A DNA stretch of 64,000 nt. Origin: Eledone cirrhosa (lineage: Eukaryota). Location: positions 331,080,001 through 331,144,000 of the forward strand of contig OZ024740.1 in the NCBI GenBank assembly GCA_964016885.1, read 5' to 3'. Below, in pieces: positions 349 to 59,271 of the stretch (the first letter of the stretch is position 1; the number at the start of each line of letters is the position of its first letter). The notes beneath the pieces are model-generated. The model made no database searches. It was not told where the DNA came from and worked only from the letters and a program-made list of their open reading frames with translations. Both the position numbers and the translations under genes were made by a program.

Positions 349-1405
349 CAGAGGAGCCAGAACCAAATGGGAAAACAATGGTAAATAATGATACAAATGG
401 GACCTGCCCCTTGTATAGGAGCAAATTTTGGAATAGAATAGAAAGAACTAGGAATAAGGTTAATAGAATAAACTCATGGTATGATAGCAATAAATACCAG
501 AGTGTAATGTTCATCGATACAAACCCAAGAGGTGAATTAGCTTACAAATTTAGAAGGGCCCTAGATAAACTTAAACTTAATATTAAGATAGTAGAAAGAC
601 CAGGTACCTCCATAAAAACACTTATTAGTAATACATACCCTTTTCAATGACCTCCCTGTGTAGATAAGAAATGCATAATCTGTAAACTAAGCCCCCATAT
701 TAACTGTAAAACTAGAAACATAGTATATAGCATAAGATGTACTGAAGGACAATGTACAGAAAAGAATATAATGTACATAGGTGAGACAGCCCGTAGTATA
801 GGATAACGGTTAAATGAACACGGCAATGGCGTCAAGATAGAAAAGAATCATGAATACTCCACCAACATGCTAAAATAGAACATAAGGGCAAATTAGAGAA
901 CATAGAAATAAAAATAGAATCTACACACAGAAAAGACGCAATGTTAAGACAAATCACAGAGGCAATAAACATAAATTAACTCCAACCAAAATTAAATAGA
1001 AAACATGAATAGAATAGCAACATCACAACTTACAATTAAGGACAAAATTAAAACACACACACATAGAACAACCAGTAACATGTAAATAAACAAATAAACA
1101 AATAAACACGCACACAGACACCCGGATGTAACACATGCGCAAACTAAGCACACAACACACACAAAAACAAGATGGCGTAGCACAGAACAAAGGAGAGGCA
1201 CAAAACAAAAAAAAGAATCCCCAGTCACTGAAGAGGTGACTGAAAGTGTGACGAAAGAATTTGACAATATATGAACAACCGTCCGGAATTTATTTTTTTT
1301 AAAATGTTTATTTTTTAAAGATTTTTTAATTTATAATAAATTGGAGTGAAATCTGGGGTGCGAGTGTTTCTTATTGGCAACATGACCCTCCCAAAGTAAC
1401 ACACT
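349..1405 (+). mobile_element. 5'-truncated Penelope-like element (RT C-terminus, Cys linker, GIY-YIG, 3' UTR); same family as 31712-33740
   Basis: ORF 378-650 is nearly identical to the C-terminal half of ORF 32486-32998. It is followed by a frameshifted KCIICK..NCK..IVYSIRC..MYIGETARS GIY-YIG. It starts in (CA)n and ends at (TA)n. Confidence 0.9.
1224..1265 (+). ncRNA. Minimal type I hammerhead ribozyme in PLE 3' UTR
   Basis: gtca-CTGAAGA-stem II-GAAA-gaa-TT-tgac; stem I gtca/tgac; stem III is vestigial. Confidence 0.6.
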
Positions 1406-1498
1406 ATATATATATATATATATATAAGTAGAACTGATAATTCATGAGTACTACTCAACACAGGTATATATGTATATGTAAATATATATATATATATA

Positions 1499-1760
1499 TT
1501 TCGTTATTCAATTTCTCTTACAAGATTTCTTATCTAAAAGAGTGTGTTGAAACATATACATATAAAGATATGCTTTGGGAGTGTCATGGTGCCAATAAAA
1601 GCACACGTCCCTGTTGATTGTCACTTGAATTTATTATAAAGTTTCGTTTGGTCGGTAGTTTTGATAACCAAATGTTTTTTCTTTATTGTCAATGCTCTTT
1701 GGTCACACACTCATTGAACTCCCCACTACTGGGATTTCACTTTGTGTCTATCCTTTGTTC
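1499..1760 (-). mobile_element. Diverged inverted pseudo-LTR/3' end of the same PLE family
   Basis: The reverse complement matches about 1215-1400 (ttattggca.catgac.ctcccaaag) and the terminal tail seen at 33738-33815. Confidence 0.75.
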
Positions 1761-2210
1761 TGAAACCGGTACAATTAAATGTAGATATCCCTACTTTGTA
1801 AATATATGTTTTGATGTTATACTGTAAAAATCCCTCTAGCATGTTCTACTGCTTCTTTTTTCCGTTTTACTATTTGGCAACATGTAAAACAATATAAGAA
1901 TTATACATACAAAAGACGGACACACAATTACAGAGTCATCGGTCGTTGAGATGGTTTTTCGCCGTTTCGACCACTACCAATGGTACTGCTGGACCAATAT
2001 ATATATATATATATATAGATAGATAATTTAATATATCAACTAACATAGGCGCACAGATGCACGTCCATGCCAGCAAATACACAGGTTATGTCATAGTACC
2101 TAGGTGGTTTAATGCAGGAGGGTGCAGAACAATAATATAAAAGACGTAAAATAAGAAAATATTTTTTTAAAAATTTTTAAAAATGTGTTTACTTACTTAC
2201 TTAAATTTTC

Positions 2211-2292
2211 ACTCCAACTAATTAGTTTCTGCAATGGGATAAAGACAGTTACGTAATCCAACTGTCGAGAATTCATTGCGTCATCAGGGAGT
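2211..2292 (-). ncRNA. Type I hammerhead ribozyme, intact core, extended stem II
   Basis: Reverse complement: actcc-CTGATGA-c gcaatg..gacagtt/aactgtc..cattgc a-GAAA-ctaattag-TT-ggagt; palindromic stem III, GUU site. Confidence 0.85.
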
Positions 2293-2765
2293 CTATTCTC
2301 AGCTGAGTCTCCAGGCAATGCGCGGACACTGGCGGCTCATATAAAAATAATAATAATTCGGTAGAAAGAACAGCTGGCGAGGACTGGATTCCATGTACTG
2401 AAATTCTCACTGCTTCTAGTCAAATGGCCGATTCTAAAGAATCAATCACGTGACACAGAGGCTAGTTAGAAGGAATGGGATGGTAAGATGACTGACGCCT
2501 ACTAACACCCCAAAAAAAATTTAGAAGTGGTTTTGGCAGGTTTGCTCGACAAATCAGTGATTTGGAGATAAATATAGATAATTTAATATATCAACTAACA
2601 TAGGCGCACAGATGCACGTCCATGCCAGCAAATACACAGGTTATGTCATAGTACCTAGGTGGTTCAATGCAGGAGGGTGCAGAACAATAATATAAAAGAC
2701 GTAAAATAAGAAAATATTTTTTTAAAAATGTTTAAAAATTTGTTTACATACTTACTTAAATTTTC

Positions 2766-2847
2766 ACTCCAACTAATTAGTTTCTGCAATGGGATAAAGA
2801 CAGTTACGTAATCCAACTGTCGAGAATTCATTGCATTATCAGGGAGT
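2766..2847 (-). ncRNA. Hammerhead copy with G8>A core mutation
   Basis: Same as 2211-2292 but the core reads CTGATAA. Confidence 0.7.
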
Positions 2848-3518
2848 CTATTCTCAGTTAAGTCTCCAGGCAATGCGCGGACACTGGCGGCTCATATAAA
2901 AATAATAATAATTCGGTAGAAAGAACAGCTGGCGAGGACTGGATTCCATGTACTCAAATTCTCCCTGCTTCTAGTCAAATGGCCGATTCTAAAGAATCAA
3001 TCACGTAACTGTCTTTATCCCATTGCAGAAACTAATTAGTTGGAGTGAAAATTTAAGTAAGTAAGTAAAACATTTTTTAAACATTTTTTAAAAAATATTT
3101 TCTTATTTTATGTCTTTTATATTATTGTTCTGCACCCTCCTGCATTGAACCACCTAGGTACTATGACATAACCTGTGTGTTTGCTGGCATGGACGTGCAT
3201 CTGTGCGCCTATGTTAGTTGATATATTAAATTATCTATATTTATCTCCAAATCACTGATTTGTCGAGCAAACCTGCCAAAACCACTTGTAAATTTTTTTG
3301 GGGTGTTAGTAGGCGTCAGTCATCTTACCATCCCATTCCTTCTAACTAGCCTCTGTGTCACGTGATTGATTCTTTAGAATCGGCCATTTGACTAGAAGCA
3401 GTGAGAATTTCAGTACATGGAATCCAGTCCTCGCCAGCTGTTCTTTCTACCGAATTATTATTATTTTTATATGAGCCGCCAGTGTCCGCGCATTGCCTGG
3501 AGACTCAGCTGAGAATAT

Positions 3519-3600
3519 ACTCCCTGATGACGCAATGAATTCTCGACAGTTGGATTACGTAACTGTCTTTATCCCATTGCAGAAACTAATTAGTTTGAGT
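3519..3600 (+). ncRNA. Hammerhead copy in the inverted arm
   Basis: CTGATGA at 3524, GAAA at 3582, GUU site; the first stem I pair is mismatched. Confidence 0.8.
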
Positions 3601-3666
3601 GAAAATTTAAGTAAGTAAGTAAAAAATATTAAAAAAATTTTTAAAAAAATATTTTCTTATTTTACG

Positions 3667-3699
<33 letters not shown>

Positions 3700-3702: not shown

Positions 3703-4618
3703 CCCCAGCTTACATAGGTAGACGTACCTCTTTTCTTTTCCTCTATGTTTTCTTCTTCCCCCCGTCTCATCCTATCACTTCCTTCCACACCCGATCTTCT
3801 TCCTCGTCTGTTTTTTTCATTTTAGCCTACCCCGATGCAGCCTATCGCTCCTCTGTAGGCCCAGTACTCCCACCCCTATAATTTTAAGATGTGTATCTTT
3901 TTTGTTACTACTCCAATTCTACAATTTCAACATTTCTTATTTAGTATTTTCTATTCTGAACTTATTAACCTGTAATTTTAAGATAGCATTGCCAGATTAC
4001 GCTTTACTAACTATTTATAGCAGCTGTGTTAGACGCCCTAAAAAGTTTGCATTATATTTTTCACTACCCATTTCTACAATTTCTTATTTAGTATTTTCCA
4101 TTCTCAACTTATTAAACTTTTCTGTAGCTTTGCCGTACAAGCAACACCTAATAATTATAGCAGCTGTTTCTAGACTCTACTGCTTTTGCTTTTTATTCAT
4201 TTCTCACTTTCTAATTTTTTATACATTTTTTTATATTCACTGTACCCTACTCTCATTTGACTTACCTATTCTTTAAACTCCCCTCCTCCTTTTTCTCCGG
4301 AACAATTTTTCGACTTTTCATACACTCTCCTTAGAATGTGGTGTATAGATTTCACTTTCAATACCTGACTAGCTTTACTCACTCCATCATTGTGCTACAG
4401 CCAAGTTCAGCCACCCCTAACTCCCACCAAATGCCATGATAGAATTATTTGTGTTTACAACACATTTTGACCAATTCTCTTGACAACTACAATCTTCCCA
4501 TAGAAGGAAGTACCCCTTGACAAGTTCGGGTATTTATTTACCAGGCTAAAAATTGTAATTTAGTCCAGAAATAGCCGTCAAAACGGCTTGAGCTCTGCCG
4601 TCGTGGTCATACCTTTTC

Positions 4619-4620
<2 letters not shown>
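3700..4620 (+). mobile_element. Solo 3' UTR/pseudo-LTR of a Naiad family (related to 18740-19500 minus and 20560-21119 plus)
   Basis: Shared blocks such as acactcc.ttagaat.tggtgta.aga.ttcac, ttgaccaat.cttg.gacaactacaatct and gttcgg.tattta; flanked by (TA)n. Confidence 0.75.
4512..4607 (+). ncRNA. Variant hammerhead (U3-A8 core), decayed
   Basis: acccc-TTGACAA-g ttcgggtattt..aaatagccg tc-AAAA-cggc..gccg-TC-gtggt; G12>A is consistent with CpG decay. Confidence 0.6.
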
Positions 4621-4692
<72 letters not shown>

Positions 4693-4695: not shown

Positions 4696-6190
4696 AAATT
4701 AAGATAAATTAAATGAATTTAATCTAAATCAAAATTATGGGTGTCATGCCAGAAAGACATGCGCCATAACACCCGGAAAATAAGCTCTAAGATTCTAACG
4801 AGTAGGTCCGAGCATTTTATAATAAGTAGAAATTGATTAACATATAAATAAACATGAAGAATCACAGGAGATAATTTTTACAAGTGTGTAACCACACATA
4901 GCTAGGTAGGTAACTAAATAAAGTTGACCAGAACTTATTTTTGAAGTTCTAGTCAACTTTATTTAGTTACCTACCTAGCTATGAGTGGTTACACACTTGT
5001 AAAAATTATCTCCTGTGATTATTCATGTTTATTTATATGTTAATCAATTTCTAGTTATTATAAAATACTCGGACTTACTCGTTAGAATCTTAGAGCTTAT
5101 TTTCCTGGTGATATGGTGCATATCTTTCTGGCATGACACCCATAATTTTGATTTAGATTATATTCATTTAATTTATCTTAATTTTGGATATAGATATATA
5201 AATACGGCTCCTTAATTGTAGAGCTAACTCTGTTGAAAGGAGTCGACTGCTGTTTCTAGTTGGCGATAAACCTATTCACGCCACTGGGACGAAGCTACTA
5301 TGATGTGTGTATTTATAGTCAATACAACACGGGGTGATGGCCAGTCGCAGGTTTGAAATTAAAGTGTAAACACGGATTGCTGGAATTTCTTCCTTGTTGA
5401 AAATCCAAGTCCCCACTTTCGTGGTTTACCATCCGATTAATTGGTTAAATATATTTCTTTAATGGAATATACACAGGGAAGATTAATCATATTAAAAGGT
5501 ATCTATTTTTGAAGTTCTGGTCAACTTTATTTAGTTACCTACCTAGCTATGTGTGGTTACACACTTGTAAAAATTATCTCCTGTGATTATTCATGTTTAT
5601 TTATATGTTAATCAATTTCTAGTTATTATAAAATGCTCGGACCTACTCATTAGAATCGAAGAACTTATTTTCCGGGTGATATGGCGCATGTCTTTCTGGC
5701 ATGACACCTATAATTTTGATTTAGATTAAATTCATTTAATTTATCTTAATTTTGGATATAGATATATAAATACGGCTCCTTAATTGTAGAGCTATCTCTG
5801 TTGAAAGGACTCGACTGCTGTTTCTAGTTGTCGATAACCCTATTCACGCCACTGGGACGAAGCTACTATGATGTGTGTATTTCTAGTAAATACAACACGT
5901 GGTGATGGTCAGTCGCAGGTTTTGAACTTGAAGTGTAAACACGGATTGCTGGAACTCTTCCTTGTTGAAAATCCAAGTCCCCACTTTCGTGGTTTACCAT
6001 CCGATTAATTGGTGAAATATATTTCTTTAATGGAATATATACAGGGAGGATTAATCATATTATAAGGTATCTATTTTTGAAGTTTTGGTCAACTTTATTT
6101 AGTTACCTACCTAGCTATGTGTGGTTACACACTATAAAAATTATCTCCTGTGATTATTCATATTTATTTATATGTTAATCAATTTCTAGT

Positions 6191-6193
<3 letters not shown>
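4693..6193. repeat. Non-coding 568-bp tandem unit (about 2.2 copies) with a 5' inverted segment, flanked by (TA)n
   Basis: gaagtt.tggtcaac recurs at 4943, 5511 and 6079; 4693-4937 is the reverse complement of the first ~250 bp of the unit. Confidence 0.9.
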
Positions 6194-6562: not shown

Positions 6563-6653
6563 ATCCTCCTGATAAGTCGGCAGACCTCGCAAGGACTCTA
6601 TATCTTTATGATGTATTGTTTTTGTTTATGCCACGAAACTACGTAGTCAAGGA
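6563..6653 (+). ncRNA. Degenerate hammerhead
   Basis: tcctc-CTGATAA-gt.ggca..tgccac-GAAA-ctacgtag-TC-aagga; palindromic stem III, G8>A. Confidence 0.55.
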
Positions 6654-6716
6654 ATCTAGGAGCAGTTTAGGTATGTTACATTTTATTACTAATTATATCT
6701 AAATGTTTCTTCTCTC

Positions 6717-7328: not shown

Positions 7329-7350
7329 CTACCACTTATTTGGACAGCCA

Positions 7351-7399
7351 GCTTCCTGATGATTTGTCACAAATGAAACAGTTCTAGTCCTGTAGAAGC
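7351..7399 (+). ncRNA. Type I hammerhead ribozyme
   Basis: gcttc-CTGATGA-tttgtcacaaat-GAAA-cag ttctagtc ctg-TA-gaagc; perfect stems I and III, GUA site. Confidence 0.85.
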
Positions 7400-7401
7400 T
7401 C

Positions 7402-17554: not shown

Positions 17555-18150
17555 TATGTATGGACGTTTATTTTTGAGACTCGAAACCGATTCGGTAAAG
17601 GTAACTATAGTAAGTAAAGTTAATTTTTTGAAATTTATTTTGAAACTTTTCTTATTTGCTAAACCTTGATTATATATGTTCTGGCTCGTTAATTTATTAA
17701 CCTGCCATTGAACCACATTGGCATATGGTTGGACAATACACGTGTCTCTTAGCGCCTTGTGCGTGTAGGAACATATACTCTATTATTACTCCTCTTCTCT
17801 TGGTTGAGAAAAAGATTTGGTCGTTCTGACTGCTGCTAGTTATAGTGGTAGCCGACTGACCCCCTGCCTCCGCCTCCATCTTTACACACGGCCCTTGAAA
17901 AAATTGATTCCACTTCATTTACTCTCATCTGGGGAACAATTTTGAATAGCGCCACTTCGTAATTTGAATTCGTGAATTTTATATTCTTCGAGTGAAAAGA
18001 TCCTTCTGACGAGAATTTTTCTTTGCAACGGATGCCGTATGGACTCCGTATATATTTGAGACTGAAACCGATTCGGTAAAGGTAACTATAGTAAGTAAAG
18101 TTAATTTTTTAAAATTTATTTTGAAATGTTTCCTTATTTGCTAAACCTTG
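17555..18150 (+). repeat. 481-bp HHR-bearing unit, about 1.2 tandem copies, flanked by (TA)n (retrozyme/pLTR-like)
   Basis: gaaaccgattcggtaaaggtaactatag.. occurs at 17583 and 18064. Confidence 0.85.
18002..18082 (+). ncRNA. Type I hammerhead ribozyme
   Basis: cctt-CTGACGA-51 nt (acgga/tccgt)-GAAA-ccgattcgg-TA-aagg. Confidence 0.75.
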
Positions 18151-18534: not shown

Positions 18535-18596
18535 ACGTTGCTGACGATAGCTAATAAGCGTGACGATAGCAAATAAGCTTGAAACTAGTACAGCGT
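18535..18596 (+). ncRNA. Minimal type I hammerhead ribozyme
   Basis: acgttg-CTGACGA-..-GAAA-ctag-TA-cagcgt; palindromic actagt stem III; a ~19-nt tandem duplication lies in stem II. Confidence 0.75.
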
Positions 18597-18739: not shown

Positions 18740-20560
18740 TATAAGGAAGGAAGTATGGTAAGGAACCAGGTGGGCCATAATGCACTAGAGTACTCAATAC
18801 TTAGGGTAATAGAGTAGGTAATAGAAAATTGTTCAAGCCCCCGACGGCAGAGTTCAAGCCATTTCGACGGCTATTTCTGGACTAAATTAGATTTTTAGCG
18901 TGGTAATAAATAGCCGAACTCTTCAAGGCGTAATTCCGTATATGGGAAGATTGTAGTTGTTACAAGGATTGGTCAACATTTCTTCTAAACTCAATTAAGA
19001 CTTTGATGGTGGTGGGTAGGTGTAGGGGTAGCTGAACTTGCCTGAAGAACAAAGAGGCAGCGGGTGGTGTCGGTCAAGCTTTGAAAGTGAATTCTATACA
19101 GCAAATTCTAAGGCGTGTGGATTAAATTAGGCGAAATAAGAATTCTTGAGGAAATTGAGAGAAGGAAGTTATAAAATTAAAAGAATGAAAAGTTAATAAA
19201 TTGAAATTAAAAAATTTAAAAATAATAAATAAAAATAATATTAAAAAATTAAATATTAGAAAATAATAAAAAGACTAGAGTCTAAAACATCTGCTATATT
19301 TGTAGCTGGTATTTTCGGCCAATGCTATATAGAATTTACTGGGGTGGTGGTACTGAAGCTATAAAAGCCCGTTGGGCTGCCTCAGTGTAAGCGAAGGAGG
19401 AAAAAGGAAAAGGCAAAAGAGAGGGAGTGGATGGAAGTGAGAAGAAGAGATAAAGGGAAAAAAGAAAAGTACAGCTACTTATGGATGCAGGGGTTTCCCC
19501 TATCTTGTTCGGCAAGTGGGGAAAAGAAGGATGTTGTCTACCCACCCGGGTCAGGAGAGGTTTTAAGGCGAGGTTAGTCCTACAATCGAAATTTACATGC
19601 AGTTACAAGTTCGTCTTTTTTGTTTAGGAGTTGGTCCTTCGTAAACAGCATTTATATTTTTTCCTCCGACCGTAAGTTACACGGACGGCGTCCTCCCGTG
19701 TAGGGATTAACCCTGGAAATTCAGCTACAAGTAATATGGTATGTGATGTTATTATCTTGGAGGTCCCAGGTGTGGCCCGAAATTGTAGTGGCATGTTGCC
19801 GGGCAGGGTTTCTCAACGTATGTCGGAGTTGGTAGTGCCGGGTCTTAAAGTCACAAGCGTTTAATCCTATATAGGCTTTGCTGGTGCTTTCCGTCCTCGC
19901 GTTGCATTGAGGGGGCACGTAGATATATCAGGGCAGTTACAGCTCCTGGTCGGCTCTCCACTAATGTCTAGGTTGTTTCGCTCATAAGAGTTTAGTTTAT
20001 TGCTGTTTGAGGAGGCGATGTTTTGTGCGAAGTTGGGTGTGCTGCTGTACGTGAGTTTGATAGTGTTTTTTTTTTATTATGCTGTGGTAGCGATGTTGTG
20101 GTGGGAACTGTTTTTCGAGGAGCCTAAAAAAGATTTTCCCGGTTAGTGTTGCAAGTTCGGCATTGTGGGGAGGGTTGAACCACGTTATGTGTCGTGAGAG
20201 GCGGTGTCCCCTGCTGGTTCCGCTAGGGAACCTGGGTAAAAGGAAATTTCTTCCCGAAAGCCGCTTCGCTTGAGGGCCTGATTGTAATAAGGTGCATGTT
20301 AATCGAATATCTGCTCATTAGCAGACAAACGAGATATGGGGAGGGAGTTGTTTTTAACGAGGTTATTTGTGATGTTTCTAGAATGGGTAGATCGCCGAAT
20401 GCAGGAAACATTTCGGTGAGTTTATGTAGTAGAAATAATACTATAAGATCGGTCACATCCGCCGAGTCGGTCGCGCCCATACTGACGTCGAAGGGGGAGT
20501 CGGGAGCTCTCTTTAGCCAATTGAAATTGTCGAAGAGGAGGACTTGCCGAACAAGATAGG
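18740..20560 (-). mobile_element. Decayed 5'-truncated Naiad-type PLE (RT, GIY-YIG, 3' UTR)
   Basis: PFDVSMGATDSADVTDL, ITWFNPP, CNCPDISTCPL and AYIGLNACDFKTR are homologous to ORF 21471; internal deletions and frameshifts. Confidence 0.9.
18837..18931 (-). ncRNA. Variant hammerhead (U3 core) in Naiad 3' UTR
   Basis: Reverse complement: cgcc-TTGAAGA-g ttcggctattt..aaatagccg tc-GAAA-tggc..gccg-TC-gggg. Confidence 0.7.
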
Positions 20561-21119
20561 GAAAACTCCAGCATACGTAGGTAGATGTACTTCTGTTTGT
20601 TTCCCTTTATCTGTTCTTCTCACATCCTTCCACCACCTCTACTCTTCCTTTTCCTTTTTCCTCTTTCTCTTTCAATCAGGCAGCCCATCGGGATTTGTAG
20701 GCACATTACCCCTACCCCAGTAATTTCTATATAGCATTGGCCGAAAAAACAATACCAGCTAAAAATATACCAGCTGTTTTAGACTCTAGATTTTATTATT
20801 TTTTATTATTCAATTCTTTTATTTATTATTTTTTAATTCTTTAATTTCAGTTTATTAACTTCTTAATTTTTTTATTTTATAACATCCCACTCTCAGATTT
20901 CTCCAGAATTCTTTTTTCGCCTGCTTTCTAGCTAGCCTAATTTCATCCACACTCCTTAGAATTTGGTGTAAAGAATTCACCCCACCACTACCCACCACCA
21001 TGAAATAGTTAATTGTCTTTACAAGAAATGTTGACCAATCCTTGTGACAACTACAATCTCTCCATATATGGAATTACCCCTTGAAAAGTTCGGCTATTTA
21101 TAACCACGCTAAAAATCTA
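20560..21119 (+). mobile_element. Inverted 3' UTR/pLTR copy at the 5' end of the minus-strand Naiad
   Basis: Reverse complement of about 18890-19480; truncated inside HHR stem II (core TTGAAAA at 21081). Confidence 0.85.
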
Positions 21120-21167: not shown

Positions 21168-21241
21168 TCACCTGATGAGATCAGTGATAATCGATCATGG
21201 ATTCACAATCGATCTCTCTCTTATTGAAACATGTGTCGTGA
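21168..21241 (+). ncRNA. Minimal type I hammerhead ribozyme
   Basis: tcac-CTGATGA-47 nt-GAAA-catgtg-TC-gtga; palindromic acatgt. Confidence 0.7.
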
Positions 21242-21282: not shown

Positions 21283-21555
<273 letters not shown>

Positions 21556-23721
21556 TTAAATTCCGTAGAGTCACCACACCATTCCAGGCCTACTTAAATG
21601 CTGAATTGCGGAATATTAAAAAATCCCCTAATCTTTATGTCTCCTTCGATAAAACCAAAAACGTTTATGAGGTAGACCCACAGACCTACAATAAGCTGGC
21701 AAAAAATACCATCACGACCACCTACAAAAAGGCACTGACTGAGACAAACGCGGCCGGAAAAGAAATCGCCAAGTCCCTTAAATTACATGACCGAACCGAA
21801 CCTTTAAGGGTAAAGACCCCGCACTTTACCCTGAAGGACCATAAGGGAAACTTCCTCAACAAACCATCAGTCAGACTTATCAACCCCACTCGTTCTGACA
21901 TCGGCTCTATCAGTAAGAAGATCCTGGATAGAGTTCTACCATCATTGCGGGCTGCCTCACCACTTCCACTCTGGAGCAGAACATCTGAGGCAATATCAAG
22001 GTTCCAAAATTTACCCGACAAACACCACACTCGCTTCCTTCAACTCGACATAGAAAACTACTATGCCTCTATCTCGGAGCCCCTCCTGAAGGACGCAATT
22101 AACTTTGCCAGGAATTTTACCACCATTACCGATGCTGAGCAAGTTGTTATCCTCCACGCTCGTAAGACCTTTCTATACCACGATAGATCTTACTGGATCA
22201 ACAAGAAATCTCAGACCCCATTTGACGTTAGCATGGGAGCGAGTGACTCGGAAGAAATTAGCGACCTTGTGGGCCTGTACATCCTACATCACCTGAAGAA
22301 CCTCTTTACCGGCCTAACGGGAGGTTTATACCGAGACGACGGCCTCTTCGCCCTGCATAAGGTTAACCCCAGAACCACCGATGGGTTTCGGATAAACTTA
22401 AGCTCATTCTTCTCTAATCTAGGATTTAGTATAACTATAGAATCTAATTTGACTAGGGCCAACTTCTTAGATGTCACTCTCGACCTAGATACTTCCCTCT
22501 ATTACCCGTACCACAAACCTAACGAGTCCCTTAAATATATTAATGTTAATTCAAACCACCCCCAAAACATCACTGATAACCTAGTAAAAAGCGTCTCTAC
22601 TAGAATATCTGGCCTCTCCGCCAAAAAAGATATTTTTAACGCATCTGCCTCCTACTACAATGACGCCCTCGCCCGTAGCGGATTTAAAGAAAAGATAACA
22701 TACCTAGAAACCACTGCAAGATTGCAGAGGAGGAATAGACATAGGCAGATTAGCTGGTACAACCCTCCCTTCAATAGAGAGGTCTCTACTCCGATAGCTA
22801 GGATTTTCTTCACTTTGCTGAAATTACACTTCCCCATACAACATAGGTACCACACCATCTTTAATAAGAACACAATAAGACTCTCCTACTCCAACACACC
22901 TAACCTAGCTAGGAATATAGCCAACCACAATTCTAAAAAATTAAATAAGCCAACTACCTCCGAACCCAATCCCCGGACTGGGGCTCTGTGTAATTGCCTA
23001 AATAAGGAAGCATGCCCACTTGAAAACAAATGCCTCACAAATGATATCGTATACAAATGCGATGTCATCTCAGGCACCGATGATTGCAAAAAAACTTACA
23101 TCGGCATGACCTCCAACAACTTTAAGACCCGTTGGTATGCCCATACCCACTCCTTCAGAAGACCGGACAAATCAAACCAGACAACACACGCCTCCTATGT
23201 TTGGGACCTCAAAAGGAACTCCACCCCCTTCACGCTTAAATGGAAAATACTCCAGAAAGCACGCGCTTACGACGGAGGACACAATGGCTGCGACATTTGT
23301 ATCTCAGAGAGCTACGAAATTTTATTCGCCAAGGGCCCGCTACTGAACAAACTCTCTGAACACTGCCCGAACTGCATGCACAAGAAGTTTGCAACTTTCA
23401 AACACTTTAAGCCAGTGTTAAAGCCCGATGGCTAAAAACGACCTCCTCCTATTGGCCCCTATACCCCCTTCCCACCCTACCCCCACCCCTCCTCAACCTG
23501 AAATACGGCCACTATGATTATGTGAGTACCTTTTACCTATCTACATCTTCTGCCTGTAGAGGTGTTTTTATGTGCCTGCGTATATGCGTATATTTATTGA
23601 GTACTTATTTATTTGTATGTGTATATATTTGTGTGTATGTGTGTATATGTATGTGTATGTATATGTATGTGTATGTATGTGTATGTGTGCACTTGTGTAT
23701 ATGGGTATGTGTGTGTATATG

Positions 23722-23756
<35 letters not shown>

Positions 23757-23783
23757 ATGTGTATATATGTATGTGTGTATATG

Positions 23784-23824
<41 letters not shown>

Positions 23825-24620
23825 GTATATATATATGTATATATGTGTATGTATGCATGTGTATATATATATATATCTGTTAGAACACGAAAAGTGTGAA
23901 ACAACAGAATGTTCACTTTTCGTGTTCTAACATATATGCCTAGCTTTTATAAAAAATTTTCGGGGATAGCCGTGGTGGTGGTGATCGTATGTCATTGGCT
24001 AATTTTCAACCAATCAGAGTACCTCTCTCTATATCTCTTCCACTGTTACTTACGCCTGTTTCTCTCTATCTGTTCCGTCTCTATATATATATCTCTTACT
24101 CTTTCGCTTTGCACTCCTCCCCTTCAATACCATCTCTCCCCCTCTCTATATATTTGTTACTCTATTGCTGCACGCTCCTCTCCTTCAATATATCAATTAC
24201 ACACGCTTTACACTCCTTTATCCCCAGCGCCCCTATATATACACCCCCCCTCTCCCGCATCTATATTTTAATGTACCGTTGCACCGTGAATATATGTGTC
24301 TATATATATATACATATATATTGTATATACACATTCATGTATGTGTATACACACTCATGTATGTATATACACTGGTTTTATGTGTGTATTGTAAATTTGT
24401 ACTGTTAAAACACGAAACTAACATTCGATTGACACTTTGATTACCTGTACAGGCAATAGTTATTAGAATGCTGTTGAAGTGTGTATATATTTTTTGGGGG
24501 ACATCCTGTATATACACACATTATATATAATACAATAAACAGATAAATACACACATATATATATGAGCTTATTTAATTATAAATATTGTGAATTTTTAAC
24601 TCAGTTCAATTATATATATA

Positions 24621-24668
24621 AATGGCTTCTACAGGACTAGAACTGTTTCATTCGAAAGAAATCATCAT
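24621..24668 (-). ncRNA. Truncated hammerhead (7351 family)
   Basis: Reverse complement: aTGATGA-tttctttcgaat-GAAA-cagttctagtcctg-TA-gaagcc; the 5' strand of stem I and C3 are lost. Confidence 0.65.
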
Positions 24669-25283
24669 AATATTGAGAGGGGGGACTAGATAAAATATTT
24701 CAAATCAAATGTGTATAAGTTATAAGTTAAAATGTATAAATAGAGACGATAGTGGAGGTATATCTGTTTAGTGGAACAGTAGACGATAGAATTAAATACA
24801 GACGAGAATCTCCCTTTAATGAAACAGCAGACGATAGAATTAAGGCAATTTAAATTTTAAGCATTTGCTTTCATCGTTACGGGGTCGATAAAATAAAGTA
24901 CCAGTAATACACTGTCACTAGACGACTTTCAAATTGAATTGTTGGTTCCATTTCTTTAGTATTTTCAATTGTAGTTATCTACTTAAAAAGCGTTACACGG
25001 TTAGAGACATAATTGGTAAGTTATATCTTCCCTATTAAACCATTGCATTATTTCGCCTACAATAGAACAAAAATGAAATGCTCTTTAAAGAAACAGGAAT
25101 ATAACTTTATAAAAAAAAAAGTTGCATCCGCTTCTTTTATCATTGATAATTTTTTCGTTTTAATATTAATTGTTTTTTGTAGTTGTTTATATTAAAAATC
25201 TTACTGTAATATTTACTTAAACGAAGGCAAACATCTAAACTTATAGATTAATCTTGAGCGAAGGACTAGATAAATCTCTCTCC

Positions 25284-25318
<35 letters not shown>

Positions 25319-25699
25319 AACGAAGAATGATAAAATTTCAAGCAAAGAGTTGTTTAATTAGGTATATTTTGTAATATTATTAACTAATTATTATAATTAA
25401 CGCGCATATTTTGCTATCCTCAAACACGTTTTACACATGGCATGAAATATAACTAATCCGAGATGGCTAGGTTTCATCTTCTAACTGGATATACGAAATC
25501 CATTATGTCTTGACAACAACATGAGGTAACATTATGTTATTCACAGACACACTTTGTACACTGTTCCATATCAGAATGTATTTCCTTCGTCACATTCACA
25601 AACAGTATTGAAAATATGTTCTTCGGCAAATAAAAATGTTTTGTTCATAATATTTCAACTACCGATTGCTCTACTCCACGCACGACCACCATAAATTAA

Positions 25700-25890
25700 T
25701 GACCAGCTCAACACAAGTATTGGTAGAGCGTCAGACACCATGCTTTGCAGTATTGTTATGGTCCTTTGCATTCTAAGTTCAAATCCTGCCGAGGTTAACT
25801 TCGACTTTCATACTTACTAATTCGATAAAATAAAGTACCCGTAATGGACTGCCGTAATGGATTTGTGCCGAAAAATAGAAACACTATTAA
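25700..25890 (+). mobile_element. tRNA-derived SINE
   Basis: tggtagagcgtc..gttcaaatcctgccgaggttaac..tcgataaaataaagtac (A/B-box-like head). Confidence 0.75.
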
Positions 25891-26439
25891 TGTGCAATAA
25901 GAGCAAAATATAACGACATTGCTCAATTATTTTATCTAATGTTGTAATAACACAAGGAAATGTTGTTTGTGTATTTTTTTTTATATTTGCTCATAGGCTT
26001 TTACAATTTCGCTCAGCCAACAACTATTAAAAAGTGAGTTGCTTAAGATAACAATTTAATCACAAATTGTTGCTATCTTTTAATACACTCCAACAAGTCA
26101 TCAAATTATGTACAATAAAAACAAATCTTATTAATTTGTTCAGGGAATATAAAGAAAATGTATATACACTGATAATTGCAATTGTATGTAAATATTTTGT
26201 TTTTGTATTGTATATTTTATGTTTTCTATTATGTATAATATATTGATTTAATATTGATTGTTTTTTGTAGTTGTTTATATTAAAAGTCTGAAAATATTTT
26301 TATACATCTTACACTAATATTTATAAGATAATTTATAATAACAATCACATAATCTAATTACATTACAACGATAATTTATTATTAATATATATCCTGTTTA
26401 ACTAGAGTTATTACAAGCGTTGCCTTAAAAAAATATTAA

Positions 26440-27395: not shown

Positions 27396-29300
<1,905 letters not shown>

Positions 29301-29539
29301 TATGGGTGCGCGCGAGTGTGTGAGTGATTGTGTTTTGTAACTGTGTCTGTTGATTTTTGGCATATAGTTGAATAGTTTAAGAGAAATTTGAAGATAATTG
29401 TAAGATATGCACTCAATATTTTGAATTTGTCTACAGAATTCTCTAAACCTTTGTCACTTAGTAGAACCTTAATGAATTTAGCTTTTAAAGAATATCCCTT
29501 TCCTTTAAATCTAACTACCATGACTGACCCCCCACTGAT

Positions 29540-30122: not shown

Positions 30123-30598
30123 AGAGTTATAGAAGGTTCAATGAATACATCAAATAATGAGTTTTACAATAGATTGGAAACACTCAACAACAGTCAACAA
30201 TTTTTTCCAGAGTTATTAATATTAATTCAGAATATTAACAACATAGATATTCTTGTGATCAATTATATTTTATTATACATATTTCAGAGGTACTGAGTTC
30301 AAAAGTACGTCCTCATCATATAAAATAAAATGATACATGACATACCCTGACATAGTAGATGGTTAAGATTGAATTAATATATATATATGTGTGTGTGTGT
30401 ACGTATCCATATTTACATTTATGTATCAGAGAGTTAATGGGAGAGTGAGTGAGGGAGGGAGGGCGGAAGACAGAGAGAGAAATAGAGAGGGAAAAGAGAG
30501 GAGAGAGTAGAAGAAGTGGGGAGCGAAACGGCGTTCTTCCTTGCTGATTGCCTTCCTAACCTCCCCACCAAACTCTTGCATGGACCCATACACCACAC

Positions 30599-31711: not shown

Positions 31712-31719
<8 letters not shown>

Positions 31720-33740: not shown

Positions 33741-33815
33741 CCCAAAGTATAACAATATCGGTTTCAACACACGATTTCAGATAAAGAATCTTGCTAAACA
33801 AATTCAGAAACGAAA
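33738..33815 (+). mobile_element. Inverted terminal tail of the PLE at its 5' junction
   Basis: ctcccaaagtataacaatat is the reverse complement of 31712-31731, then continues with a tail homologous to the reverse complement of 1499-1580. Confidence 0.8.
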
Positions 33816-34595: not shown

Positions 34596-35026
34596 ATAAA
34601 ATATTAAAAGAATAATGAATAAAACAATGAAACAGTTCCTTATATTAAACAAAAAAAGTTCATTATTTAACGATCGTTTCTAGGATATATATGTGTTAGA
34701 ATTGGCATGCATATTCAACAGATCTATGTACAAAATTATACAAAATTATACAAACTATCAAGATTAAATATACATACCAAACACACATATATGCCGTCTT
34801 CAGAAATAATGATTATTTCTGAAGACGGCATATATGTGTGTTTGGTATGTATATTTAATCTTGATAGTTTGTATAATTTTGTATAATTTTGTACATAGAT
34901 CTGTTGAATATGCATGCCAATTCTAACACATATATATCCTAGAAACGATCGTTAAATAATGAACTTTTTTTGTTTAATATAAGGAACTGTTTCATTGTTT
35001 TATTCATTATTCTTTTAATATTTTAT
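34596..35026. repeat. Perfect palindrome (215-bp arms, 1-nt spacer at 34811) of a Naiad pLTR with two long-stem-II HHRs
   Basis: ..gaaataat-g-attatttc..; HHRs at 34660-34812 (-) and 34812-34961 (+); homologous to the 55-59 kb pLTRs. Confidence 0.92.
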
Positions 35027-36224: not shown

Positions 36225-36388
36225 ACAGTAAGTAACGTACTCAATACATTAGTAGAGTGTATACAACAAAATTAAATATAGAAATGGCTTTCATACGACA
36301 AGAACCGTTTCATTCGAAACAAAATCGTCAGGCTTTACTGATGATTTCTTTCGAATGAAACTGTTTCTTGTCGTGTAGAAGCCATTTA
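36225..36388. ncRNA. Back-to-back inverted pair of hammerheads (7351 family) with pLTR tail
   Basis: Minus copy at about 36284-36335 (CTGACGA); plus copy at about 36331-36383 (CTGATGA..GAAA..GTA gaagcc). Confidence 0.75.
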
Positions 36389-41211: not shown

Positions 41212-41269
41212 TACTGCTATATATATTTCGATGAAAGCCATTGAATGGCTATGGCCTCATCAGGCAGTT
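41212..41269 (-). ncRNA. Minimal type I hammerhead ribozyme
   Basis: Reverse complement: actgc-CTGATGA-g..agccatt/aatggct..c-GAAA-tatata-TA-gcagt. Confidence 0.8.
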
Positions 41270-42315: not shown

Positions 42316-42484
42316 ACATATATATATATATGCATATAAAATACACATATATACACACATAAAATACATTTATATATACATATAATATATATATGTAAAA
42401 GTATTATTTAGATTGTTGGGATACAACAAGCAAATATTTTTTATAACTGATATAAAGCACTCAACAAATAATTGGAGTAAAAAT

Positions 42485-42850
42485 ACGATATTAACAAATG
42501 GAAACTATATTTATAAAACCATATTTATTTCATTATACATATTTCAAGGACACCAAGTTAGATTATGGTGTGCTTTCATCAGATGAAATGTAACATAGTG
42601 CAGTTTTATAAATAAATATTGACATACCCTTAAAGAATGCAACTATTACTGTTCGAAGCTTTACTATCCGGGAGCTTCCAACAGTAATGGTTGCATTCTT
42701 TAAGGGTATGTCAATATTTATTTATACAACTGCTCTATAATATATTTTATCTGATGAAAGCACACCATAATTTAACTTGGTGTCCTTGAAGTATGTACAA
42801 TGAAATAAATATGGTTTTATAAATATAGTTTTCATTTGTTAATATCGTAT
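42485..42850. repeat. Fold-back repeat with an HHR in each arm
   Basis: Arms meet at about 42660-42672. Intact HHR at 42527-42589 (-): atttcat-CTGATGA-aag cacacca..tggtgtc ctt-GAAA-tatgta-TA-atgaaat. Mutated copy at 42744-42806 (+). Confidence 0.85.
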
Positions 42851-43049
42851 AATATATATATATATAAAAAATCAGGTTCAATAAAATGTGATTTTGATGA
42901 CTCCTAACCAGTAGAGGATCCGGTGGACCATCCACCATAGGGACCACAAACTATGGGTGATTGTTGTTGTCCATTGGTCATTGATACGGGGTGTAGGGGG
43001 CCTACAGGGTGGGGGGCGTTGTGGGAGGCCTTCACCGGGGTTTATCCAT

Positions 43050-43442
43050 ATAGCTTGAGGAAAGTTCCCGTCCTTAGGTGTCTGCAGGCACCGAATAAGT
43101 CGGCCCTTCTGTTTAATAGCTTGGTTCCGCCATGAAGAATGTCGAGTGTCTCAGTAAGACAGAGGTTGCAAATACCAGACCCGCCTCAGTCTGGGGGAAC
43201 CTTTCTAACCACGGACCAGACCGGAGAGTGCGGGGTCTTTTCAAGTTTGAGCTTCCAGATCAATTCAGAAAGGGCCATACATTTCCTCCTATCTATTCTG
43301 TTAAAGCAATGGCGATGGTTATTCTACCGACCTTTGAAGCTCGTCGCTGTGGATCCTATGTAGTGGTGCTCCGAGTTAGGGGTTGTGACCTTGCCCCTGT
43401 AGACTACGTTTTTCGTCATGCATTCATTACTAAGGGGGCATA
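43050..43442 (-). pseudogene. Naiad GIY-YIG endonuclease fragment
   Basis: CPLSNECMTKNVVYRG..HYIGSTATSFKGR*NNH..CNLCLTE..LLN..CRH. Confidence 0.9.
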
Positions 43443-48694: not shown

Positions 48695-48773
48695 GCTGCT
48701 ACCGACGGTTTCGGTTCACAAAAGATTGCAAATTCTCTGAATTTCCAATGGAAAGATCAGCTCTTCAGACAGC
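48695..48773 (-). ncRNA. Type I hammerhead ribozyme
   Basis: Reverse complement: gctgt-CTGAAGA-g..c-GAAA-ccgtcgg-TA-gcagc. Confidence 0.8.

Positions 48774-51390: not shown

Positions 51391-51395
<5 letters not shown>
50511..51395 (-). mobile_element. RTE-type LINE 3' portion with inverted 5' segment
   Basis: Minus 50511-51075 reads RYLGAKIG..LLYGSETW..RLRLAGH..GRP; plus 51070-51395 reads LFIIVVDY..EFADDIVL..VEDFRY. Confidence 0.9.
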
Positions 51396-54651: not shown

Positions 54652-54822
54652 TTAATATAGAAATGGCTTCGACAGGACTAGAACTGTTTCATTCAGAGAA
54701 AATCATCAGGAAAGCCCTTATTTCCTCAGAATGAAAGCCATTTCTATATTAAATATTTATACTCTGCTACGTATTGAGTACCTTACATACTGTTGTTACC
54801 ACCGATTGAACCCGGGATAAAC
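54652..54822. ncRNA. Minus-strand HHR (54665-54716, GUC site) plus an oppositely oriented pLTR tail
   Basis: Reverse complement: ggctttc-CTGATGA-ttttctctgaat-GAAA-cagttctagtcctg-TC-gaagcc. Confidence 0.8.
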
Positions 54823-55026
54823 ATATATATATATGTGTAGATAAATCTACCAAAATATACGGTAGTGTCCAATCCGTATGAAGAACTCAATGTAATCCAA
54901 ATATCATGAAAAGAGAACCTGTATTCAAAATGTTTTTTTCGCTGAAAAACACAGGAAAACAGAGTCAAGATAAATTAATAAAAATAATGAATAAAAACAA
55001 AGAAACAGTTCCTTATATTAAAAAAT

Positions 55027-55165
55027 TCATCATTTTACGATCGTTTCTAGGATATATATGTGTGTGTTGGTATGTATATCGTATAGATCTATGTAACATT
55101 TTTACAAACTATCAGAGGGAATATACATACCTACACATATATATGCTGTCTTCAGAAATAATGAT
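55027..55165 (-). ncRNA. Hammerhead with ~100-nt stem II (intact)
   Basis: Reverse complement: tcattattt-CTGAAGA-long hairpin-GAAA-cgatcg-TA-aaatgatga. Confidence 0.8.
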
Positions 55166-55456
55166 ATTTGTTTATTGAAAAAACCCAACAAAGATTTAAT
55201 ATAATAGGTCTGTTTGGCAACAGGTTTTGAATTGACCAATAGAAAGGTAATAAATGGTCAAGATGATAGAATAGTAGTAATAGGAATTTAATTTAGGGGT
55301 AGAGGAAAGCAGATTCAGTTTTGAATGGAAACAGTATTTTGAATGAAAAGATTACTTTGGGGATGAAAATAGGTCAAGCCGGTGAAAGGTACACGAAAAT
55401 TTGATGTTATAAAAGAATAATGCTAAAGTTAAAATTTTTTTTCAATAAACAAATAT

Positions 55457-55590
55457 ATTATTTCTGAAGACAGCATATATATGTGTAGGTATGTATATTC
55501 CCTCTGATAGTTTGTAAAAATTTTACATAGATCTATATGATATACATACCAACACACACATATATATCCTAGAAACGATCGTAAAATGAT
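55457..55590 (+). ncRNA. Hammerhead with 101-nt stem II (intact)
   Basis: CTGAAGA at 55464, GAAA at 55572, palindromic acgatcgt, GUA site. Confidence 0.8.
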
Positions 55591-55897
55591 GAATTTTTTA
55601 ATATAAGGAACTGTTTCTTTATTTTTATTCATTATTTTTATTAATTTATCTTGACACTGTTTTCCTGTGTTTATCATCTAGAAAAGAAATGTTGAATACA
55701 TCTTCTCTTTTCATGATATTTGGATTACATTGAGTTCTTCATACGGATTGGACACTACCGTATATTTTGGTAGATTTATCTACATACTTTGCTCCTAATT
55801 TTATAAAGGTATTCATATTTTTATATATATATATATAATTTTATAACTCCCTATATATATAGTTGAGCTCTTTTTCTTGTCCATTATCCATATCACA

Positions 55898-58399
55898 ATG
55901 GAAAAACAATAGTTGGTAACTTCTTTAAAGAATATACCAATACCTTCTAAGGATGAATTCTTACTTCTTATGATACAAAAAACCAACCAATTCATGAAAA
56001 GGGTCAGATGGAGAGCCTACCACTTTGATAAAAAACAAAATGTACTGATAAGAAATATTTATATGATTTCACTACATATAAGAACCCACCACACAACTCC
56101 TTGCTTGAAAACTTCGAGAAAGGCCTTTTTAACTTAATCAAACACCTCAAATTTAAGAAATATAAATCTAATTTTCAAAAGGATCTTGATTCTACCCTAT
56201 TGGATCCAAAAAAATCTAATAAAATCCATGTCCACTCTGACGAAACTGGAAATCTGTACCACATGGATATTGATAATTACAATGAGTTCATATATAAAGA
56301 ACATAGGAAAAATTATAAAAAAACAAACAATGCGGCACTTACCAATATCAACAACAAAACACACAACATAGTAAATAAACTCAATATTGAAGATAGAACT
56401 GAACCGTTGGCACTGAAAAAAACACATTTTAACCTGAATGATCGCAAGTCTAATTTTAACTCTAATCCTTCTATAAGACTTATATGCCCTTCCTAATCTG
56501 ACATTGGCATCATTAGTAAACATATTTTAGATAGAGTCATCCCACAATTAAGAAAACATGTTAATTTACCACTCTGGGAAAACACATCCCAGGTAAGTAA
56601 CTTGTTTACTAATATTAAAAATAAATCATCTACTTCATTTCTACAATTCGATATAGATGCGTATTATTCCTCTATATCACCCACACTCCTGAACAAAGCC
56701 TTGATATTTGCCAAAAATAGATCAAACTTAACTATGGATGACATTAATATTATCACGCATGCTAGACAAACACTACTAGAATTTCAGAAGGAATACTGGA
56801 CCAGAAATACATATAGTAATCTACTCGACATTACTATCGGCTCTAGTGATTCTGCCCAAATAACGATCTTGTGGGCCTCTTTCTTCTAGTTAACATAAAT
56901 GCTTCTTTTCCCCACCTTAAAGGTGGTTTATATCGTGACGACTGTCTTCTTCTTTCCACTAACCTTAGCCTATCAGAAATTGGAAAAATTAAAAAACTTA
57001 TTAGAACTTTCCGCAAAGACTATTATAGTCTCAATATTACATTTGAAAACACAAGTAAAGTAGTTAATTTCCTTGATATCACATTAGACTTATCTACGGG
57101 TATCTACCAACCTTACCATAAACCTAACCAAAACTTACATTACATATACTCTAATCACCCTAAATCTATCCTTAAAAACCTAGCATATAATATCTCACTC
57201 AGAATCTCTAACCTTTCATCTAACCAGGATGTATTCGATAAAAATGCGACCTTTTATAACGAAGCTTTAGCTAGAAGCGGCCACAAAAACAAATTAGTAT
57301 ATATACCTTGTACCAATAATACTACAAACATACAACCCAATATTACCAACAAACACCAAATGAAATATACACACCTAAATGCCACTCACACTATACCCCA
57401 AAATACCAACTTAAAACTTAATTTCTCTAACTCTTGTAATATACAATATAATAACTTTCAAAAAACCATTCATCCTAATATTCCATTATATGTTAATAAC
57501 AAAACTCCTAATAATCAGGCTAAAACACCTATATCAATGAATCTAACTAAAAATATGTGCAATAAAATCACTAATACTAATTCTCTTAGCAAACATCAGG
57601 ATACATCGTATAAAAATAAAAAAGAACATCGAAACTGTAATAGACGAGTTAATTGGTATAATGCTCCATTTAATCTACAAATTAAAGATAATATACCTAA
57701 AAAATGTTTTACTATCCTAGAGGAAAACTTCCCACCAAACCATAAATACCATCAAATTTTAAATAAATCAACAACCAAAAATATACAACACAATATAAGT
57801 GCCTATAATGCATATAAATGTAAAAAAAAAACATGAATATAACACCAATACATCAAACTAACCATAATACTAAAATAAACCACAGCAAACCACAATCTCA
57901 TTCACATACAACAAGTCGAGAAAATTCCTCACCTAATTTGACTATCTCCTCTCATAAAACATTCACGAAAGGTTGTAACTTTAGAAACAAAGCAAATTGC
58001 CCATTAAAAGGAAATTGCCTTATTAATAACATAGTATATAAATGTAAAATTAACACTAAGGACTCAACTTATTCATATATAGGAGCTAATTCTAAACAAT
58101 TTAAAGTAAGATTTAATACCCACAAACACAGTTTTAAAAATGCCGCATTAGCTAATACAACATGCTTAGCTGAAATTATTAATAATTATAGAAAAAAGAA
58201 TATCGATTATAACCTGATCTGGAGTGTACTCAAAAGGGCCACCCCTTAGCAAAATAATAGATATTAATGTAGATTATTTTCCCAGGAACTTTTTGAAATA
58301 ATGAAATCTAAGGATATCCTATTAAATAAGCGACAAGAATTAATTATATCATGTAATCATAAAATTAGAAGAACTTTTAAATATTATAAACCTCATTAA
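55898..58399 (+). pseudogene. Frameshifted Naiad RT + GIY-YIG ORF
   Basis: SLKNIPIPS, KRVRWRA, FLQFDIDAYYSSI, GLYRDD, NFLDITL, YHKPN, WYNAPF, CPLKGNC, IVY..YIG. Confidence 0.93.
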
Positions 58400-59131
58400 T
58401 ATACACTTTACAAATTATTATAATAAATTTTTTTTTTTTTAAATTAGTTAACCTATAATTAATATTCTACTACTAATCAACTGCATAATTTCATTTCCCT
58501 TTTACAGCTATCTTTTCCTAAAATGTATACCAATAAGTATACATATAAACTATTTTAATTTCAGGTTATGAATCTATATTCCTTGTAATCTATATAAATT
58601 TGTTATTTGTCACTAATACATTTACCCCCCCCCCCCCAAATTATTATTTTTTTTTTTTCCCTTCGTGTTTAACAACATTCTTCAATTACATCTAACTCTT
58701 ATTTATCATATCTATATGAATTAATATAAATTTATCAATATAATTATACCTATCAATTAAATTAATTTATTTTCTTTTTATAGATGTAAATTTCTTATGT
58801 TTTAAATAAGATTGATATTTTTCTCTAACACATTTATCGTAAAATTTTATTCTCCTTAGATTTTAACATTAGAATTATTATTTTATAACATCAAATGTTC
58901 GTGTACCTTTCACCGGCTTGACCGATTTTCATCCCCAAAGTAATCTTTTCATTCAAAATACTCTTTCCATTCAAAACTGAAGTCTGCTTTCCTCTACCCC
59001 TAAATAAAATTTCTATTACTACTATTCTATCATCTTGACCACTTACTACCTTTCTATTGGTCAATTCAAAACCTGTTCCCAAACAGACCTATTATATTAA
59101 ATCTTTGTTGGGTTTTTTTCAATAAACAAAT

Positions 59132-59271
59132 ATCATTATTTCTGAAGACAGCATATATATGTGTAGGTATGTATATTCCCTCTGATAGTTTGTAAACATT
59201 TTACATAGATCTATATGATATACATACCAACACACACATATATATATCCTAGAAACGATCATAAAATGATG
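59132..59271 (+). ncRNA. Hammerhead with long stem II (stem III G>A mutation)
   Basis: CTGAAGA at 59142, GAAA at 59252, then cgatca-TA. Confidence 0.7.

Follow-up and report, generated by a model that had tools for sequence, protein, structure and literature searches.

Hammerhead ribozyme motifs in a 64-kb stretch of the Eledone cirrhosa genome are probably end remnants of TA-targeting Penelope-like elements and related tandem units

A 64,000-nucleotide stretch of the genome of Eledone cirrhosa (assembly GCA_964016885.1, contig OZ024740.1, positions 331,080,001 to 331,144,000; hereafter the window) carries numerous type I hammerhead ribozyme motifs. We regard it as highly probable that these hammerheads belong to the 3' terminal repeats of at least 12 families of Penelope-like elements (PLEs) and to tandem elements that lack an open reading frame (ORF) and are likely derived from them, and that they have piled up because the carrier elements insert into TA repeats genome-wide. 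This conclusion is supported by the grouping of the motifs into families, their location at the 3' ends of PLEs, the junctions with TA, their abundance across the genome and stem covariation. More than 100,000 PLE ends are scattered through this genome, and the window is an ordinary sample of it, not a special one.

An original prediction, made from the window alone, listed more than 20 motifs from about ten families, a tally that was borne out when each site was read by family. All 28 listed coordinates carry a type I hammerhead-derived motif, and BLAST against fetched genomic loci groups them into 12 families (A-L), of which all but L have copies outside the window. Core and stems look intact at 13 sites, with lesions at the other 15 (1224, 2766, 3519, 4512, 6563, 18002, 18837, 21475, 24621, 30266, 31869, 33978, 36284, 36331 and 59132) that include broken 3-8 pairs, lost G12, broken stem I or III, and truncation. 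Five motifs absent from the first list were also found, one with an intact U3-A8 core (5965, + strand) and four damaged or partial (5397+, 7618-, 42751+ and 21081+). A strict scan (CUGANGA, GAAA and UH boxes; stems I, II and III of at least 4, 2 and 3 pairs; stem II up to 140 nt; a 10.1/11.1 mismatch tolerated) returned 12 motifs in the window compared with a mean of 0.13 (maximum 1) across 30 block-wise dinucleotide shuffles, a density far above that of shuffled sequence. All 12 had been listed originally, and 48695 is the 13th motif with an intact core. An initial scan demanding a paired 10.1-11.1 recovered only 4 window motifs and was judged too strict. A scan that included U3-A8 cores gave 70 matches, 10 of them false ones from one tandem repeat in a single locus (L100), and 4 matches per 590 kb of shuffled sequence; because it is noisier, our density figures rest on the strict scan.

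The expectation that many of these motifs would escape standard descriptors was also supported. Rfam hammerhead models gave no match to the window at the gathering score and, among the 150 of 246 matches listed at E<=10, there were only chance miRNA and simple-repeat matches; a canonical rule of our own devising, distinct from RNAmotif (C3-G8 plus four perfect stem II pairs), was passed by none of the 13 scan matches. The further claim that most motifs have a minimal palindromic stem III stands for 17 of the 28 (palindromic or near-palindromic 6-11-mers) but not for nine full hairpins in families C and E or for two non-palindromic minimal stems in family A. The hairpin loops of families C and E nevertheless retain a palindrome (CUAG, GAGCUC), and a stem III self-duplex was predicted for all 12 motifs that were folded, which would be in line with the published dimer model.

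The proposed origin from pseudo-long terminal repeats (pLTRs) of PLEs is supported by five ORF-bearing PLE remnants in the window that end in hammerhead pLTRs. Read from its translation, the 654-codon frame at 21471-23435 encodes a PLE protein that combines a DKT motif, a CxCX5C linker and a C-terminal YIG nuclease and lacks CCHH; a Pfam search of this ORF gave no match. An RWR motif, corresponding to the RW(K/R) of the Hydra clade, is present in a 713-aa ORF elsewhere in the genome (L065). Combined with (TA)n insertion and the pLTR hammerhead, these features indicate that the parent of family E is a Hydra-clade PLE. There are at least 68 genome matches to the window ORF at 89-96% identity, the window's own excluded, many with 758-codon open frames, and Hydra-type ORF pieces are present in 11 of 59 random loci. 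Homologues at 36-52% identity number 381. Additional Hydra-type remnants at 19595-20552, 43060-43440 and 55922-58393 have pLTR ends with families C, I and J, respectively, and two Neptune-type remnants carry family A. [quoted passage not shown]

Families B, D, G and N form tandems without an ORF, in which every unit carries a single type I hammerhead. Family N is tandem in the window and family G elsewhere in the genome (421-435 nt units), and a same-strand neighbour at 420-600 nt was seen in fetched loci for 14 of 42 copies of B and for 4 of 9 copies of both D and G, but for none of A, I, J or K. For B, D, G and N, no parent was found within 1.4 kb upstream. The non-coding partners of the original prediction can be recognized in the ORF-less units of B, D and G, but most motifs are 5'-truncated pLTR stubs and not partner RNAs. 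Judged by sequence, most motifs appear to be pLTR ends of Hydra-clade and Neptune-type PLEs, with B, D, G and N resembling non-LTR retrozymes that may be mobilised by these PLEs. A shared (TA)n target, which had also been proposed, is upheld by TA runs within 350 nt downstream of 28 of 32 motifs (upstream, 9 of 32) as compared to 40% of random positions. For example, family C 3' ends lie at a TA run, exactly 27 or 107 nt past the pattern used for counting, in 22 of 30 loci, and these alternative ends are fixed, 80 nt apart.

Family E illustrates local nesting of insertions. In 20 full-ORF loci taken from the best ORF matches, a compound TA/TG array starts less than 200 nt after the ORF with landmarks in constant order and is followed by the E pLTR; the distal landmark was seen in 18 of these loci. 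A family E hammerhead lies within 10 kb, 2.2-9.0 kb past the stop, in 17 of the 20. In a different set of 20 full-ORF loci, 12 have an E core on the same strand, ~400 nt upstream of the ORF match. Where inserts are absent (nine loci), the array is 1.5-3.4 kb long and contains 14-41 runs of at least (TA)6; in nine loci non-simple blocks sit inside the array, some holding other hammerhead families (L071-L073 are complex, and the automatic array rule overshoots there). The window copy occupies 21384-29860, its array split by a 3.5-kb Helitron-like unit. In uncomplicated copies the stop-to-hammerhead distance is 2.2-4.1 kb, so these elements lack the short length (<3 kb) of published Hydra families, which is a descriptive trait and not a clade marker. 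The array separates the ORF from the pLTR and may consequently lead to breaks in repeat annotation. An intact Hydra family with a 1.5-3.4 kb TA/TG array as its 3' untranslated region (UTR) that receives insertions appears to be new, as no array-bearing PLE family was found in the open-access literature, a scope outside of which lie Repbase, subscription papers and bioRxiv supplements. Array landmarks gave 671 and 1,025 genome matches, indicating that ~1,000 E copies, a few percent of E insertions, reach the array, which thus accounts for local nesting but not for the microsatellite load of the genome. Family E as the source of most genomic microsatellite was ruled out by these landmark counts when set against ~8% simple repeat.

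Abundance was assessed in 59 random 10-kb stretches from 20 contigs (590 kb) of the 3.0-Gb assembly. Strict motifs number 44 in these loci (75/Mb), 29 in 200 kb of flanks (145/Mb) and 12 in the window (188/Mb), while three shuffles of the genome sample contain 0, 2 and 0. Extrapolation from this small and clumped sample gives ~2 x 10^5 motifs in the genome. For five families, exact patterns of 23-27 bases that cover the 3' half gave a total of 122,537 matches in the genome (E 27,663; C 52,024; J 9,184; B 9,077 with a 23-mer; I 24,589; reversed controls 0). These matches count remnants and not working ribozymes; the first core box was unparsable in 25 of 30 sampled family C matches, mostly truncated, and 6 of 30 sampled family E matches come from a truncated copy carried along inside a Helitron-like unit. 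Outside of the window we also observed at least 15 further hammerhead families (in L020, L046, L057, L114, L130, L140, L143 and others), some with U3-A8 and some with an 80-97 nt stem II.

These densities bear on two other explanations. Chance matching in AT-rich, palindrome-rich DNA does occur, as evidenced by the false matches and the shuffled background of the U3-A8-inclusive scan, but it fails to account for the strict-scan excess over shuffles or for families that recur with covarying stems, is already refuted for C3-G8 motifs, and has in our view a negligible probability. The original prediction also viewed the locus as the record of an ecosystem of autonomous PLEs and ribozyme-bearing non-autonomous RNAs; read as a local system, this would make it a special hotspot or co-operating cluster. 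The higher density in the window and its flanks than at random loci is what a hotspot would produce; however, the excess amounts to no more than 2.5-fold, 3-5 matches also occur in several of the random 10-kb loci, single insertions yield matches as inverted pairs, and the TA-run density of the window (7.7 per 10 kb) is average (7.4 in the genome sample). Furthermore, more than half of the listed motifs are damaged, and the head-to-head pairs lie on opposite strands, unable to dimerise in one transcript. With the density being genome-wide and the PLE, retrozyme and (TA)n scheme already published, the notion of a special locus or new ecosystem is not supported, and we consider such a hotspot very improbable.

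Covariation was read from two-sided changes only, because the scan matches are preselected for pairing. Family B has both-sided changes at stem II pairs 3 and 6, with A-U, U-A, C-G and G-C variants at pair 3. Family I has compensatory changes at stem II pairs 2, 3, 5 and 6 and an A-U/G-C exchange in stem III that keeps the palindrome. Families E, J, C, D, G and A are too uniform for much covariation. The G10.1-C11.1 pair is described as highly conserved in the published type I hammerheads used for comparison. Here, families B, E, G, I, J and N have U·U, C·A or A-U in its place: C·A occurs in 16 of 16 distinct matches of B and 23 of 24 of J, U·U in 13 of 13 of E and 6 of 6 of G, and G-C in only 2 of 35 of I. 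Stem II insertions of 100-116 nt appear to be new, with none found in the open literature. Some hammerhead variants may already be covered by Lünse et al. 2017, a study that the review PMC6765202 takes up. Families I, J and K conserve a C·Y mismatch at the fourth stem II position, possibly a tertiary contact with stem I.

Family C raises the issue of whether the ribozyme matters to its carrier. Exact copies number 1,507 for UUGARAA (U3-A8) and 1,446 for CUGARAA (C3·A8), with G7 in 96 of the first 100 C3 copies listed and a mixture among U3 copies. A broken 3-8 pair would be expected to cripple cleavage. All stems are kept in 20 C3·A8 loci, the same core is present on both inverted arms in 7, and a same-strand Hydra ORF lies upstream in 11, suggesting that the C3 state was likely in the template RNA. 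In a midpoint-rooted tree of 40 copies, in which 22 of the 37 inner branches are weak, divergence is greatest for the A7 copies, and a U3/G7 group is nested among C3/G7 copies with support 97/91. The family C copies of the window belong by sequence to the older A7-type group; the C3 lineage is a genome-level finding. A Hydra sub-lineage thus seems to have multiplied with a predicted-broken CUGAGAA core, and this appears new since no C3·A8 lineage is reported in the same open-access literature. Hammerheads could accordingly be largely dispensable passengers, with PLE lineages multiplying whether or not the ribozyme cuts, an idea that the available part of Craig 2021 (PMC8557442) raises for Naiads and that the near parity of C3·A8 and U3-A8 copies, the shared core on both arms and the upstream ORFs would favor. 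On the other hand, families B and I show conserved stems and cores along with compensatory changes, the nested U3-A8/G7 group would, provided that the midpoint root is correct, represent a return to pairing, and CUGAGAA could be a register-shifted active core (a C3-G pair, no N7, an extra A after A9). On balance we judge the passenger explanation unlikely, though clearly less so than chance or a hotspot.

Returning to insertion of PLE ends into TA repeats as the preferred explanation, we infer that the GIY-YIG nuclease nicks (TA)n and that the RNA 3' end is where reverse transcription begins; nearly every insertion, however truncated, would accordingly keep part of the hammerhead. By the same inference, stubs would often arise as head-to-head pairs, with most being dead on arrival or decaying. 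The hammerhead would cut full-length or tandem transcripts, likely as a dimer via the palindromic stem III, and the array in the family E 3' UTR would add dozens of likely target sites with each long insertion, leading to local nesting such as that at 21384-29860. Several observations weigh against this explanation. A parent ORF was sought for B, D, G, K, H, F, L and N and none was found, the covariation counts come from the preselected matches noted above, and E arrays total ~2 Mb as compared to ~8% alternating simple repeat in the genome sample, a small share of TA targets. Predicted monomer folds contain the 15.1-16.1 pair at P>=0.45 in only 2 of 12 motifs, which fits dimers but also inactive RNAs. 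Additionally, 8 of 9 predicted Xenopus retrozyme dimers gave no in vitro cleavage, according to the available part of Li et al. 2026 (10.64898/2026.07.22.740005).

The literature already contains PLE hammerheads, (TA)n targeting, U3-A8 cores (Cervera 2014), both U·U and C·A at 10.1/11.1, and a Hydra family from octopus; density, internal array and C3·A8 lineage appear to be the unreported parts, and the open-access octopus hammerhead literature yielded neither an array-bearing family nor a C3·A8 lineage. As far as the accessible sections of Craig 2021 (PMC8557442) extend, Hydra-clade PLEs share the DKT, RW(K/R) and CxCX5C motifs, the C-terminal nuclease without CCHH, (TA)n and the 3' hammerhead, and the PLE "tail" with inverted arm matches the TA-abutting 3' ends seen here. 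They also include the Octopus bimaculoides family Hydra-1_Obim (2,507 bp), and File S2 has U·U beside the core in most Hydra magnipapillata families and C·A in Chara PLE-X. Hydra families in these sections are 1.1-3.0 kb with a short stem II, whereas the family E unit is ~4.7-6.5 kb because of its array; the elements described here also have a stem II that extends to 51-116 nt in families B, C, D and J, a Hydra lineage with U3-A8 and C3·A8 cores, and copy numbers in the tens of thousands. Published type I hammerheads used for comparison likewise have a palindromic stem III, occur mostly as truncated solo copies, with pairs on opposite strands separated by 100-700 bp, and include the U3-A8 variant and an extra base after A9 (here family A); their highest count is ~9,000 (Xenopus). 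Non-LTR retrozymes, in the portions of Cervera and de la Pena 2020 (PMC7229834) and Li et al. 2026 (10.64898/2026.07.22.740005) used here, are likewise ORF-less AT-rich tandem units with one type I hammerhead each; they co-occur with PLEs, are proposed to be pLTR-derived, reach 120,000 copies in axolotl, and have no cephalopod among the hosts given in those portions. The units described here differ in being 420-600 nt with (TA)n ends and PLE-like inverted arms and in the U3-A8 of D and N; they may have a circular RNA form, and among sequencing runs none from RNA was listed as containing the one stretch that was searched. The accessible part of an O. vulgaris repeat paper (PMC13282606) does not contain the word "ribozyme", and PMC3124438 contributes nothing further.

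Table 1. Hammerhead motifs and carrier elements in the window (RT, reverse transcriptase).
Feature	Position	Strand	Remarks
Neptune-type PLE remnant (GIY-YIG end, pLTR)	351..1406	+	85% identical to 31721-32796
Family A core, damaged	1228, within 351..1406	+	base missing from stem III, mismatch in stem II
Family B ORF-less 555-nt tandem unit, inverted arm	2019..3671	.	hammerheads 2211-2292 (-, intact, C10.1·A11.1), 2842 (-, C3·A8), 3524 (+, stem I lesion)
Family C pLTR stub	4153..4621	+	U3-A8 core at 4517 has lost G12
Family N 568-nt tandem unit, inverted arm	4696..6193	+	hammerheads (+): 5956-6050, intact U3-A8; 5397, damaged
Family D hammerhead, damaged	6563..6655	+	C3·A8; U3-A8 in 7/7 other family D copies
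Family E hammerhead, intact	7350..7400	+	U10.1·U11.1, 4-bp stem III; strict scan
Family F hammerhead	18002..18082	+	core intact, stem II base lost
Family G hammerhead	18535..18596	+	core intact, 19-nt duplication in stem II
Hydra-type PLE remnant, family C pLTRs	18839..21119	-	ORF pieces 19595-20552; damaged core 18926 (-), half motif 21081 (+)
Family H hammerhead	21168..21241	+	intact by descriptor
Inverted family E pLTR stub joined to 5'-truncated ORF	21384..21548	-	damaged hammerhead at 21532
Putative Hydra-clade PLE ORF (RT, GIY-YIG-like nuclease)	21549..23435	+	DKT, CxCX5C; open, 5'-truncated
Compound TA/TG array, 3' UTR of 21549..23435 PLE	23620..29300	+	interrupted by 3.5-kb insertion
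Helitron-like insertion	23876..27394	+	5' TC, 3' CTAG, between A and T; truncated family E motif 24668 (-)
Family E 3' pLTR of Hydra PLE	29300..29860	+	intact hammerhead 29792-29842
Family I-like motif, core broken	30258..30327	-	A3·G8; duplicate at 34031 (-)
Neptune-type PLE remnant (RT pieces, CX4CX2C linker, GIY-YIG)	31716..33800	-	family A motif 31907, stem III broken
425-nt palindrome, two family J pLTR stubs	34599..35023	.	hammerheads 34660-34812 (-), 34812-34960 (+); stem II 116 nt
Head-to-head family E stubs	36282..36387	.	both damaged
Family K hammerhead	41213..41268	-	intact by descriptor
Hydra-type ORF end and family I pLTR palindrome	42483..43440	-	ORF end 43060-43440; intact hammerhead 42527-42589 (-), damaged copy 42751 (+)
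Family L hammerhead	48695..48773	-	core intact; no second copy in fetched loci
Family E hammerhead, intact	54667..54713	-	GUC
Decayed Hydra-type PLE, family J pLTRs	54830..59327	+	ORF pieces 55922-58393; intact 55027-55164 (-), 55456-55591 (+), stem II 101 nt; damaged 59142 (+)

Beyond these features, the window is AT-rich (24-41% GC) and consists of ~9% alternating TA/TG/CA repeat as compared to 8% in the genome sample. The 3.5-kb unit at 23876-27394, which we take to be Helitron-like from its end motifs, is young, being 95-99% identical to copies in seven other loci (L021, L025, L026, L027, L033, L041 and L042), and contains a 212-nt perfect inverted repeat (26441-26652 / 27183-27394). A short repeat within it (25716-25883), found in most random loci, presumably resembles an octopus SINE. 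A 582-nt tandem of 2.5 units between TA runs (48980-50466) was examined for a hammerhead and none was convincing; it has diverged relatives in L189, L088, L115 and L083, the last of which sits inside a family E array. No hammerhead was seen in a 452-nt near-perfect palindrome (35044-35495) with relatives at 30759-30933 and 31245-31402. Head-to-head LINE-type RT pieces (RVT_1 E=1.7e-5) lie within a TA run at 50511-51392, and at 52355-53058 there is a 71-nt tandem array that is degenerate, rich in purines and strongly GC-skewed.

Standard Rfam annotation misses all of these motifs. A bolder reading, which we hold tentatively and with more doubt than confidence, is that few animal genomes are as dense in hammerheads as this one (extrapolation gives ~200,000 motifs with an intact core), that the density is driven by Hydra-clade elements, one of which brings along its own kilobase TA/TG landing pad, and that the ~1,450 family C copies with CUGAGAA represent either a ribozyme that is dead although its element succeeds or an active core of a new kind, without N7 and with an additional A after A9. 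A retroelement with an internal array of target sites would provide a feed-forward route to nested insertions, and family C constitutes a natural experiment on whether PLE hammerheads matter. Direct tests of the role of the hammerhead could draw on the autonomous elements that are still intact in this genome, on their tandem partners and on thousands of naturally occurring variants of core and stems.

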